From NCBI RefSeq assembly GCF_024700885.2, contig NZ_CP117016.1: a stretch of 64,000 nt of DNA, one strand, 5' to 3'. The stretch is from Escherichia coli. GTDB lineage: Bacteria > Pseudomonadota > Gammaproteobacteria > Enterobacterales > Enterobacteriaceae. Position 1 is the first letter of the stretch. Every line of letters starts with the position of its first letter. The position numbers and the translations under genes are program-made. The notes under the pieces are model-generated. The model saw nothing but the letters and a program-made list of their open reading frames with translations. It made no database searches and had not been told where the DNA came from. Positions 50,084 through 53,842 of this stretch are shown here, piece after piece.

Positions 50084-53000
50084 TTACCATTTCACCGTCA
50101 TCGACAAAAACCCTGCCGTCTGGGCAAAATCATCACTCCCTTTCTGCCACGCCACGCTACCACGCAGGGACACTCGCTGACTGATATTGCCCGTGACTCC
50201 CACTTTTAATTCACCCCGTTGCTTCACCGCATCGTCACTGATAGTGCTGCCATCTTCTTCAATTTCCGTCGCATGCGGATCGTGATAATAATTCAGATCT
50301 AATGTTGGTATGACATGAACAGCGGTACGCCATTCGCTGTGTAAACCCAGCCGCGTTTGAATATCATCACCCTGCGATTGTGACACGCGCGCATGGTTAG
50401 CGGCGGTAAAATCATCCTGCTGCACGCCCTGATAAATCACCTGCGCCTGCGGTTCAATCACCACACCACGCCCCGGTAACCACTGATACCCGGCTTCCAG
50501 CGAGGCGATAATCCCCGATGAGTGGTAATGATCCACGCCATCTTCATGTTCGGAAACATCATTGTTAAACCACGCGTATTGCAGCCAGCTATCCAGCCAG
50601 GCCCCCTGCTTCTGATTACCGTGCTGAAACCAGCTTGAGGTCAGACCAACGGCATAACCGTGGTTCTGGTTATCGGCGCGAGTTCCGGTCATATTCGAGC
50701 GGCTGTCGCCCTGGTTATCACTGTAGCCACCAACCGCCCCAAGCATCCACTCGCCATCCGTGCCCCAGCACCCGCTAAACAAGTCGCCGCTAAGCTGCAC
50801 CGTAGAAGTGTCTTCATGCTGAGCCAGTTGCCCCGCTGCTGTGTAATGATAATCTCCGCCGATAACACGTAAATTCAGCGTCTGACCATCGCCACCAGCG
50901 TGATCGTGTCGCTCCATCACAAACGCCTGATTTGCCGCCCGCAGGTTATTAAAATATCCACCAACTTTGGCATTCAACACCGGCTGGTAGGCAGGCGTAG
51001 GGTCCGGGGCCGGGTCGGGTGTTGGATCAGGATCCGGCGTGGGATCAGGATCGGGAGTCGGGTCTGGATCAGGTGGCGATGGTGGCGTTACTTCTTGCGA
51101 TCGCAGATACCAGTCGTTGTTATCTTCCACCAGCGTGTAGTCATATGCTCCCATATTGACGTAGCCGCTGCCTGCCAGACTGAATTGCGCATTGTTTTGA
51201 AACTGCGTTGGATCGGCTGCGAAATCAACCACTTTAATGCCTGTCGATGTCGGCTCACCAATCCCTGTAATGGAGTTAACCATCACAGTTGTGTTGCCAG
51301 CAGTATTACCGTTCATCACCAATTGATCGCTTACCGAGTCATCGCCGTTTAATTCGCTATCGAGCAGTAGCGTACCACCGCCGGTATAATCACCGTTTAC
51401 CGTCAGCGTGTCGCCAGCGACGCCATTTTGCAGGCTGACCGCACCGGACGTATTGGTCAGATTGCCATTAACTGTTACGTCGGAAAGATAAGTCAGGCTG
51501 TCAGTTTCAAGGTTGGTATTAAGCTCGCCTGTCAACGTCACGCCATCGGTGGCATTCACCAGCGTCCCATCGCCGTTAAACAGTGAGGCATTAAGGGCGA
51601 TGGAAGTATCCTGCCCGGTCAGGCGCAAAACCGTACCATCGCTGATGTCGATAGTGCCGCTGGAAGTAACATCAATTGACTGAATATCCTGATCCGCGCC
51701 AGTCTTGAACGTTGCCCCGTCACCGACCCACAGCGACGAAGCATAAGGGAAGATATCCGCTACATCGCCTTGCAGCGTGCCTTCTTCGACACGTACCGCC
51801 GACTGCGTCGTACCACTGGCGGTCATTTCCAGCGTACCCGCTCCCGTTTTAGTCAATGTGCTACCCTCATCCAGATGCTGCCCGCTGCTGTCAGCCATCA
51901 GTGCGCCCCACTGCGTGTCTACCCCCGCATCAACCGCCACTTCACCGTCGGCGCGCATTTCAATATCACGCCCGTGACCTGCTGCCTCTGAACGAGTATC
52001 AACGTCAGCGGTAATTTCCATCTCACTTTGTTGTTGGCTATCAGTAAAGATGAGCTGACGGTTTTCGTCGGTATTGCCAAGCTGCGAGTTGTCGCTCACC
52101 ACCAGCGTACCGGAAGCGATTTGCGTGGTGCCCAGGTAACTATTATTGTTTGCCAGGCTAACCAGCCCGTCGCCCGCATCGATCACCACGTAGACGCCAT
52201 CTTTCTCGTCGCCGCCGATATGCAAATTGTCGCCACCTGCGAGATCCACCACATCCTGACTGCCGATAACCGTACCGCCGCTGCCGCTGACTGCAAGGCC
52301 ATCGTTGTATGATGTGCCGCTCTGCCAGGTGGCGAAATCAGAGAGATCAAGCACGCCGCCGTTTAACACGATCGACTGCGGATCGTCCTGGAGAGCGGCA
52401 AGATCTGCCGCGTCGCCTTCCAGCGTAAGCACCGCGCCATCATCAACGACTATATCGCCAGTTAGCGCCATCGACTGAGCCCCTGCCAGCACGTAGCTGC
52501 CGTTTTGCGCAATGGTGAGCTGACCAGCACCTTCGATGGTGCCAGCAAAACTGCCCTGATTAACAGTAACGTTGCCACCAGCATCGATATTTAAAGTGCC
52601 ATTCTGAAAGCCCGTCAATGCGTGCACAAAAGTTTGTTGGGTCGAGCCAACGTTTAGCTCAGCCTGATTCTGATACTGATCAAGACTCCCTATCGTCAGA
52701 CCGTAGCAGTCTTGCGGATCGTCCTGGCAATGAGTATCTCCGACATTCATCAGGGAGTTGCTGCGACCCAGGGTAACCTCACCGTTTTCTATCTGCATCT
52801 CGCCAGTAAAGTCATTGTTATCTGCATTAAGTACCAGATCGCCGGAACCTGTTTTGGTGATTACCCCGGTACCAGCAATAGAGTCAACAACTCCGTCATT
52901 CTCTGTATTGCCGATAACCAGCGTTTTTCCGTCGGCAATATCAAAGGTAACTTCACTTAAGCCGAGATACATAAAGCCGCCCGCCTCAGTGGAAGGACCA

Positions 53001-53842
53001 TCCCCATAACCTGCTGCGCTGTTGTTCTCATCCACTAACACGCCGTTGTTCTGGCTGTAGCTGTCATCAACTGAAATATCAATAAGATAGGGAGCCGTCA
53101 CGCTATTGGTATAAATCGCCCCACCATATCCCTCAGCAGAGTTATTTGTAAATGCGGTGTTATTTATTATTGTGAAACCTGACGGATGCGTGATATTGCT
53201 ATTATTATCGGTGACATCGATTGCCCCTCCATCGCCATCACTGTAACTTGTTGATGTATATGCCTGGTTGTTATCAAAAATAACTTCACTTAAATAGACG
53301 TCATTGTTGATGGTATAAATTGCACCACCTTTGCCGTCATTAGCGATGTTATTGCGAAACACGGCGTTAGTGACACTTAAATCGACGACACCGGTATCGT
53401 TAGTACCAGAAGAATAGATTGCGCCACCATAGCCACCTGCAACGTTACCGGAAAAAATAACATTAGTAAGATTCAGCGTTGAGTTTTCTTTAGCAAATAT
53501 TGCCCCGCCGTTATTATATTCTCCTGAGACAGTATTATTGGCAAACAGAGTCATTCCAGTTTCATTTTCTGGCGATAGAGAAAACTCCGCTCCTTGTTGC
53601 AAAAATACGGCCCCACCGCTGGCGTTATTGGTCATATCCGAAAAAACCAGCCATTGCCCATCGGCGATGCTCCAGTCCTGCGTAATGCCTGAAAGGCTTT
53701 GCCTGCTGGCGTGACAACTCGCTTTGATATCATATCCCTGACATGAATCAATGGCCGCCGCGACACCGTTAGCAGAGAAAAGAGATGCAATCATTGACGG
53801 GAGTAAAGATAAATACTCCTTGCGTAGAAAAATAATCCGCAT
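50084..53842 (-). CDS. yfaL: Autotransporter adhesin YfaL (1252 aa)
   Basis: Signal peptide, repetitive passenger domain, Pro/Asp/Thr linker, C-terminal beta-barrel ending ...GFLSMTVKW. Confidence 0.9.
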   Translation of the reverse strand: MRIIFLRKEYLSLLPSMIASLFSANGVAAAIDSCQGYDIKASCHASRQSLSGITQDWSIADGQWLVFSDMTNNASGGAVFLQQGAEFSLSPENETGMTLFANNTVSGEYNNGGAIFAKENSTLNLTNVIFSGNVAGGYGGAIYSSGTNDTGVVDLSVTNAVFRNNIANDGKGGAIYTINNDVYLSEVIFDNNQAYTSTSYSDGDGGAIDVTDNNSNITHPSGFTIINNTAFTNNSAEGYGGAIYTNSVTAPYLIDISVDDSYSQNNGVLVDENNSAAGYGDGPSTEAGGFMYLGLSEVTFDIADGKTLVIGNTENDGVVDSIAGTGVITKTGSGDLVLNADNNDFTGEMQIENGEVTLGRSNSLMNVGDTHCQDDPQDCYGLTIGSLDQYQNQAELNVGSTQQTFVHALTGFQNGTLNIDAGGNVTVNQGSFAGTIEGAGQLTIAQNGSYVLAGAQSMALTGDIVVDDGAVLTLEGDAADLAALQDDPQSIVLNGGVLDLSDFATWQSGTSYNDGLAVSGSGGTVIGSQDVVDLAGGDNLHIGGDEKDGVYVVIDAGDGLVSLANNNSYLGTTQIASGTLVVSDNSQLGNTDENRQLIFTDSQQQSEMEITADVDTRSEAAGHGRDIEMRADGEVAVDAGVDTQWGALMADSSGQHLDEGSTLTKTGAGTLEMTASGTTQSAVRVEEGTLQGDVADIFPYASSLWVGDGATFKTGADQDIQSIDVTSSGTIDISDGTVLRLTGQDTSIALNASLFNGDGTLVNATDGVTLTGELNTNLETDSLTYLSDVTVNGNLTNTSGAVSLQNGVAGDTLTVNGDYTGGGTLLLDSELNGDDSVSDQLVMNGNTAGNTTVMVNSITGIGEPTSTGIKVVDFAADPTQFQNNAQFSLAGSGYVNMGAYDYTLVEDNNDWYLRSQEVTPPSPPDPDPTPDPDPTPDPDPTPDPAPDPTPAYQPVLNAKVGGYFNNLRAANQAFVMERHDHAGGDGQTLNLRVIGGDYHYTAAGQLAQHEDTSTVQLSGDLFSGCWGTDGEWMLGAVGGYSDNQGDSRSNMTGTRADNQNHGYAVGLTSSWFQHGNQKQGAWLDSWLQYAWFNNDVSEHEDGVDHYHSSGIIASLEAGYQWLPGRGVVIEPQAQVIYQGVQQDDFTAANHARVSQSQGDDIQTRLGLHSEWRTAVHVIPTLDLNYYHDPHATEIEEDGSTISDDAVKQRGELKVGVTGNISQRVSLRGSVAWQKGSDDFAQTAGFLSMTVKW

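Follow-up and report, generated by a model that had tools for sequence, protein, structure and literature searches.

Segments in which proline alternates with another residue, such as the Glu-Pro/Lys-Pro region of TonB and the Ala-Pro hinge of OmpA, are extended and protease-tolerant spacers. Within the autotransporters, the self-associating protein TibA of ETEC carries an 'additional proline-rich domain' (residues 627-677), located between the junction (autochaperone) region and the C-terminal domain embedded in the membrane (PMC3835316). In Bordetella, the two repeat regions of pertactin, R1 (GGxxP) and R2 (PQP), differ in repeat number among alleles, changing slowly when compared to phase variation, and in the crystal structure of the protein both are either not resolved or loosely ordered (PMC8931430). 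The polyproline-II stalk of streptococcal P1 is a further extended, proline-rich spacer (PMC8931430).

The tract under study belongs to the yfaL/ehaC gene of Escherichia coli and was analysed within a window, meaning here the whole stretch of DNA considered, of 64,000 nucleotides. A sequence-only reading of this DNA had named the gene yfaL and described the tract as a linker, and both attributions are borne out by the NCBIfam equivalog NF007285, by the Pfam domains which flank the tract and by an AlphaFold2 (AF2) model. The features on which the comparison is based are listed below, with positions in the window and residues of YfaL.

50084..53842, minus strand: yfaL/ehaC coding sequence, intact, 1252 aa, a type Va autotransporter adhesin of the AIDA-I family (open reading frame list, translation, NF007285)
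51131..51463, minus strand: autochaperone domain type 1 (AC_1), residues 794-904, directly N-terminal to the linker (Pfam PF18883, E = 1.6e-18; AF2 beta strands up to ~914)
50990..51091, minus strand: whole variable linker V918-A951, 34 aa, VTPPSPPDPDPTPDPDPTPDPDPTPDPAPDPTPA, between the conserved DWYLRSQE and YQPVLNAK (translation, allele comparison, AF2 coil with pLDDT <50)
50993..51085, minus strand: proline-rich tract P920-P950, PPSPPDPDPTPDPDPTPDPDPTPDPAPDPTP, which reads PPSP + (PDPDPT)x3 + PDPAPDPT + P (translation)
51020..51073, minus strand: three tandem 18-nt codon units, each encoding PDPDPT (TRF; repeat search, in the shifted register 51012-51065; codon listing; simulation)
50996..51019, minus strand: degenerate last unit PDPAPDPT, with a 6-nt insertion in respect to PDPEPT of K-12 (alignments)
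50927..50971, minus strand: predicted alpha-helix, residues 958-972, running through the barrel lumen and following the linker immediately on its C-terminal side (AF2 model residues 169-183, pLDDT ~90; conserved motif; similarity to 4MEE)
50153..50872, minus strand: autotransporter beta-barrel domain, residues 991-1230 (PF03797, E = 1.9e-33; TIGR01414, E = 1.5e-111; AF2 barrel after the helix)

The identity of the gene is clear from the match to NF007285, the YfaL/EhaC equivalog, which aligns residues 1-1252 to profile positions 1-1250 with 2760.8 bits, against a curated cut-off of 1459 bits. Also, a 501-nt segment of the window gene is 100% identical to yfaL of E. coli strain 1190, and the adjoining open reading frames of 256 and 878 aa fit the ubiG/gyrA neighbourhood of E. 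coli, the gene order yfaL-ubiG-gyrA being taken from annotated orthologous loci. Using the 501-nt query around the tract, the locus is found once per genome, and is annotated yfaL each time, in 5,419 of the 5,426 complete E. coli genomes. Membership in the type Va autotransporters is evidenced at the C-terminal end by the PF03797/TIGR01414 barrel, by the AF2 helix at 958-972 and by the resemblance of this part of the protein to the AIDA-I transport unit 4MEE (E = 2.4e-34), and upstream of the barrel by a beta-helical passenger with PATR and Chlam_PMP (Pmp) repeats in Pfam and the AC_1 domain at 794-904. The N-terminus of the translation is hydrophobic and ends in ...SANGVAA. Across the loci read in different strains the length of the protein varies from 1,194 to 1,252 aa.

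The peptide proposed from the sequence at 50995-51085 corresponds to P920-P950 at 50993-51085, i.e. within 2 nt. Within its 31 residues are found 17 of the 32 prolines of YfaL (hypergeometric P = 1e-21), a clustering far beyond chance. The 34-residue linker is a long allele because the last unit carries the 6-nt insertion relative to PDPEPT of K-12. The AF2 model was calculated for residues 790-1252 from a 16-sequence alignment (mean pLDDT 84.5, pTM 0.81) and orders this region as beta strands up to ~914, the tract as coil with pLDDT below 50, the helix at 958-972 and finally the barrel. In this model the tract appears as a tether at the extracellular mouth of the barrel, connecting the autochaperone domain to the helix which occupies the lumen.

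The comparison to homologous proteins points to the same arrangement. A P-x-P-x linker of ~7-50 aa is present at this junction in 15 out of 15 aligned homologues, at identities down to 32%, the alignment including ten sequences at 32-40% identity from other bacteria. The junction is bordered by W-Y-L, invariant at the end of the autochaperone domain, and by the conserved helix motif, Y..N..AAN..F, which is kept across all the aligned homologues. The AIDA-I-type homologues (P0047, P0081, P0082, P0093, P0107, P0111 and others) share with YfaL the succession of AC domain, P-x-P-x linker, helix and barrel, with Asp, Glu or Thr between the prolines, and differ from it in that their linkers span from ~7 to 50 residues and are built of PEPT, PTPT, PGPG or PQPE units. 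The family of procyclin acidic repeats (PF05887) is a precomputed match for two of these homologues; the YfaL linker peptide, searched by itself, has no match in Pfam at E <= 1. In respect to the systems described above, the YfaL tract has the same position as the proline-rich domain of TibA, as it occupies residues 920-950 between AC_1, ending at 904, and the helix and barrel, starting at 958; the two are likened by position, and the TibA domain has ~50 residues versus 31-34 in the window allele of YfaL. The R1 and R2 regions of pertactin are, like the YfaL tract, proline-rich tandem peptide repeats of a type Va autotransporter whose copy number depends on the allele. However, they form loops of the beta-helix passenger, whereas the YfaL tract would be a tether from the autochaperone domain to the barrel helix, and their variation is discussed under vaccine or immune pressure, for which YfaL has no known counterpart. 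The spacers of TonB, OmpA and P1 belong to unrelated proteins and to other compartments, and the analogy is one of mechanism only. The YfaL tract is an element of a kind already known, in a protein which is known as well, and, as such, ordinary.

These data are very probably best explained by the tract being a proline-rich, disordered spacer of YfaL/EhaC which is also an indel hotspot arising by slippage, with slow and nearly neutral changes in length. The tract would tie the autochaperone base of the secreted passenger to the helix inside the outer-membrane beta-barrel. Having a proline at every second position, with Asp or Thr in between, it should be unable to form either helix or sheet, and its conformation is most likely extended and polyproline-II-like, making of it an acidic rod or tether at the barrel mouth. 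With ~3.1 Å per residue, the 31 residues of the tract would reach at most ~95 Å, and those of the shortest allele in E. coli ~50 Å. Position and composition together suggest that its role would be that of a spacer, holding the passenger off the membrane surface.

A distinct picture results from the analysis of the DNA which encodes this peptide. At the amino acid level the three PDPDPT copies are perfect, whereas their codons differ at synonymous third positions, with the result that the pairwise DNA identity of the 18-nt units is 72-83% and the longest exact direct repeat has 11 nt (GATCCTGATCC). TRF reports a period of 18 with 2.6 copies, 82% matches and a score of 59, and the repeat search returns three 18-nt copies with 100, 78 and 72% identity to the reference copy. 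We have recoded the same peptide 5,000 times, using random synonymous codons drawn either from E. coli genome usage or from the usage in the rest of the gene. The longest exact repeat amounts to 11.8 ± 3.0 nt in the simulation versus the 11 nt observed, and the identity at period 18 to 0.66 versus 0.63; indeed, periods 6, 12 and 18 all match the simulated values. The periodicity of the DNA thus follows from that of the peptide, and the synonymous-codon simulation gives no sign of a recent duplication or homogenisation in the window allele. The tract has the features of an in-frame coding VNTR of the pertactin R1/R2 type, as its tandem units of 18 nt keep the frame and encode a peptide repeat. 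The description of this DNA as near-perfect short tandem nucleotide repeats was overstated, considering that the copies are only 72-83% identical and that the longest exact repeat is the one expected from random codons.

A role for the DNA itself, as a Dam/SeqA target formed by five GATC sites or as the source of an encoded RNA or antisense protein, was also considered, and to this explanation we assign a next to negligible probability. Five GATC sites do lie in the tract, inside ~50 nt, and an open reading frame of 150 aa on the plus strand (50900-51352) overlaps it. However, the number of GATC sites is the one arising by chance from Asp-Pro codon pairs (5 observed in the tract versus 5.06 ± 1.36 expected). 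The candidate Dam/SeqA GATC cluster was rejected on the codon simulation, the GATC density not exceeding what the coding requires. The Rfam scan of both strands of 50300-51800 and the Pfam search with the antisense reading frame yielded no match, both at E <= 1. The single strand of the tract DNA folds no better than shuffled sequences (z = -0.23) and it comprises no inverted repeats, leaving an account of instability or of assembly breaks by hairpins unsupported.

The length of the linker was determined in 20 complete-genome loci, the first residue counted being the one which follows SQE and the last the Ala preceding YQPV. The lengths in the loci named are as follows.

34 aa: the window, EC96 and UR21/11-869
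32 aa: K-12, CFT073 and O157:H7 (the latter with Gln in place of one Pro)
30 aa: strain 48 (deer)
29 aa: GN25
26 aa: A15, M15 and O111:H8 7-32 9A
24 aa: RIVM_C037794 and Z0117EC0032
20 aa: OkiPb01679, O111:H8 TW05614 and O91:H21 FWSEC0008

In addition, one Escherichia sp. protein has a linker of 36 aa and other arrangements occur among database proteins. The length of this linker had been suspected to vary between strains, and the alleles of 20, 24, 26, 29, 30, 32 and 34 aa make this evident; the repeat number is not identical among the yfaL alleles compared, as it would have been if the idea of length variation were wrong. The strains differ by whole units in frame, with indels of 6, 9, 12, 18 and 24 nt, as in a coding VNTR. 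A search of the protein database with the last 463 residues yielded mainly fragments, full-length clusters of E. coli being absent, and the length frequencies were consequently drawn from BLAST spans in complete genomes, which vary in discrete steps. In 60 evenly spaced genomes the 32-aa linker accounts for ~65%, followed by 26 aa (~22%), 34 aa (~6-7%), 24 aa (~3%) and 20 aa (~2%); these population frequencies rest on a sample of 60-100 rows out of 5,419 genomes. The length class of the window corresponds to ~310 records at >=95% identity, the 20-aa class to ~22 records and the 29-aa class to at least 8. The length classes are few and each is common to tens to thousands of genomes. An exact 31-nt pattern, used to look for a complete linker of the Shigella sonnei type, had 0 hits in metagenome contigs. 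The searchable literature returned no paper in which yfaL appears together with tandem repeat, MLVA or VNTR, and the yfaL allele series may be undescribed, although it is unsurprising.

The differences in length are concentrated in the tract. In an alignment of seven full-length yfaL alleles (82-98% identical), five of the eight indel runs, of 9, 24, 12, 6 and 6 nt and all in frame, fall inside ~90 of the 3,759 nt (binomial P = 4e-7), the remaining three being a 6-nt indel in a divergent segment of the passenger and two frameshifting deletions. Several of the alleles bear the mark of short direct repeats. The 18-mer CCTGACCCAACACCCGAT stands twice in perfect tandem in the 26-aa allele and a single time in the 20-aa allele; the O111:H8 strains TW05614 and 7-32 9A, which show 0 mismatches in 2,050 flanking positions, have this 18-nt unit as their only difference. 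Linkers of 20 aa occur with PPLPP as well as with PPSPP, hence on at least two backgrounds, and the unit was probably lost more than once. The 30-aa allele is without one GATCCT of the imperfect 6-nt tandem GATCCT GATCCC, and in one genome an in-frame deletion of 168 nt joins two copies of the 12-mer CTGATCCCACGC, of which one lies in the autochaperone domain and the other in the linker. The closest relative of the window, RIVM_C037794, differs from it at 4 of 200 flanking positions and has 24 instead of 34 aa; the downstream flanks of the loci L006 and L020, whose comparison is distorted by offset indels, are left out of account. Recombination between alleles could explain, in place of repeated slippage, some of the length differences on similar flanks, as for the window and RIVM_C037794.

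We have argued above for a spacer whose length changes by slippage, and the mechanism would be as follows. Since the peptide is periodic, its codons make up direct repeats of 6, 12 and 18 nt which are short and imperfect, and slipped-strand mispairing, or deletion at short homologies, between these repeats would produce gains and losses in frame. The outcome would be the observed series of alleles, from 20 to 36 aa, with the tract as the main indel hotspot of the gene. Turnover would be slow and at the level of lineages, single clones being affected now and then if they happen to have a perfect repeat, and would not operate as an on/off switch. The proposal that such tracts change copy number by replication slippage is therefore upheld only in part: the in-frame changes at short direct repeats and the one-unit difference in O111:H8 speak in its favour, whereas the process is slow, the length classes are few and the window copy is imperfect. 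That such changes could vary the passenger-domain spacing, in a way which may matter, is geometrically plausible. The tract would be a slow, lineage-level indel hotspot rather than a hypermutable tract. Slipped mispairing would be faster where the repeat is perfect, and the degenerate units of the window allele are probably among the less prone to slippage.

The same data bear on the view that the tract is a contingency (phase-variation) locus, where frequent slippage would switch YfaL on and off or yield heterogeneity within a population. In the genome L030 a 7-nt tandem duplication (TGACCCA) in the linker frameshifts yfaL, the frameshifts of the database fragments P0035-P0037 and P0064 begin inside the tract, and many draft assemblies break there. 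However, yfaL is frameshifted outside the tract as well, and the frameshifts of the fragments may be sequencing errors. The length of the repeat units is divisible by three, the longest exact repeat of this short and imperfect tract is at the random-codon expectation, and the linker length is constant within the K-12 derivatives and within the O157:H7 strains. In one clonal pair, that of O111:H8, it differs. We regard phase variation as highly improbable. A contingency locus is expected to have a long, perfect tract of short units whose gain or loss shifts the frame or the spacing of the promoter, and the tract was rejected as such a candidate, having units that are multiples of 3 nt and copies 72-83% identical.

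A further explanation is that the linker is an adaptive or antigenic variable region under diversifying selection, as R1 and R2 of pertactin. Its length would then be matched to how deep the O-antigen or capsule layer is, or varied so as to evade antibodies, and the differences between strains would be functional. In its favour, alleles of different length are present and have recurred, 10 aa separate the window from its closest relative on nearly identical flanks, pertactin alleles do differ in the number of proline-rich repeats (PMC8931430), and yfaL has been reported as one of the genes of E. coli which show positive-selection signals (PMC9110714). Indel-rich regions can, in this respect, inflate positive-selection tests such as the one listing yfaL, and the yfaL alignments used in selection scans contain this indel-rich segment. 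Against it, the length classes are few and each common one spans many unrelated hosts and sources. Also, 6 of the 20 yfaL loci fetched, a sample biased toward odd alleles, are annotated as frameshifted pseudogenes, which suggests weak selection on yfaL in many lineages. Constitutive expression of yfaL promotes biofilm formation, but the published phenotypes relied on the gene being placed behind a constitutive promoter (PMC3764049). We thus consider diversifying selection on the linker unlikely. In its more specific version, recurrent slippage of 6-18 nt would tune the height of the passenger to the thickness of the O-antigen or capsule, or vary an epitope, the common length classes being selected optima, and this we regard as slightly more doubtful still. 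The length differences are most likely nearly neutral, with a spacer that tolerates a range of lengths, a reading which is supported by the spread of the length classes across unrelated hosts and sources and by the pseudogenes in the sample just mentioned.

Beyond bookkeeping the tract matters little. Short-read assemblies often break at it, and repeat counts are best taken from complete genomes. As a typing marker, the 18-nt unit could be of minor use in some STEC lineages. For the use of the C-terminal unit of YfaL as a surface-display anchor, the natural alleles show that a spacer of at least 20-36 residues is tolerated, and they constitute a ready-made series for tuning the display distance. 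In respect to YfaL itself, it is this tract which accounts for the differences in length of the protein between strains of E. coli.

The yfaL locus of strain VTB97022v (L007, NZ_CP178670.1) carries a 168-nt in-frame deletion, equivalent to window ~51050-51217, by which the autochaperone domain loses its end and the linker its first half; the annotated product is 1,194 aa long. At the junction, one copy of the 12-nt direct repeat CTGATCCCACGC is joined to another. Apart from this locus, the database fragment P0009 is missing LVEDNNDWYLRSQ as well as the entire linker. Substitutions are also observed: in the O157:H7 allele (strain NE92, L026) a single Pro to Gln change (PDPDPTQDPDPT, equivalent to window ~51035-51037) interrupts the strict alternate-proline pattern, and in the S. 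sonnei allele the first two acidic positions are changed from Asp to Asn (PNPNPT).

In short-read drafts of both S. sonnei and E. coli, contigs very frequently end at or just before the linker:

equivalent to window ~50990-51250: contig-break site, in fetched loci L009-L013 and database proteins P0012, P0013, P0015 and P0025-P0120

About 70 of the 120 database matches are YfaL fragments with ragged stops between residues ~863 and ~939, and clusters with 303, 519 and 304 members begin immediately past the linker. At the two contig ends inspected the gap amounts to only about 15 nt, and neither end carries IS sequence. A coverage hole, a collapse of read quality and true length heterogeneity are all candidate causes of the breaks.

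An open reading frame is found on the strand opposite to yfaL:

50900-51352, + strand: 150-aa ORF with a GTG start, antisense to yfaL and overlapping the linker

It gave no Pfam match at E ≤ 1, and most likely arises mechanically, from the GC-rich proline codons of the opposite strand.

The gene is annotated as a 'frameshifted' pseudogene in 6 of the 20 complete-genome loci fetched, a set skewed to unusual alleles:

L003: strain A15
L004: strain CFT073
L006: strain GN25
L021: strain MS20657
L022: strain Z0117EC0032
L030: strain GPEC60-12-649

The sites vary: one frameshift involves 1 nt (gene nt ~1359), another 11 nt (~2927), and a further one is a duplication of 7 nt within the linker. Some of these frameshifts may be long-read errors. 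As for the S. sonnei fragments (L013, P0080/P0083), they either share an internal start, ADGKTLVIG, at about residue 303, or are read into from unrelated upstream sequence (PMTSLKTSIKTI...), which suggests that the 5' part of yfaL is disrupted in S. sonnei.
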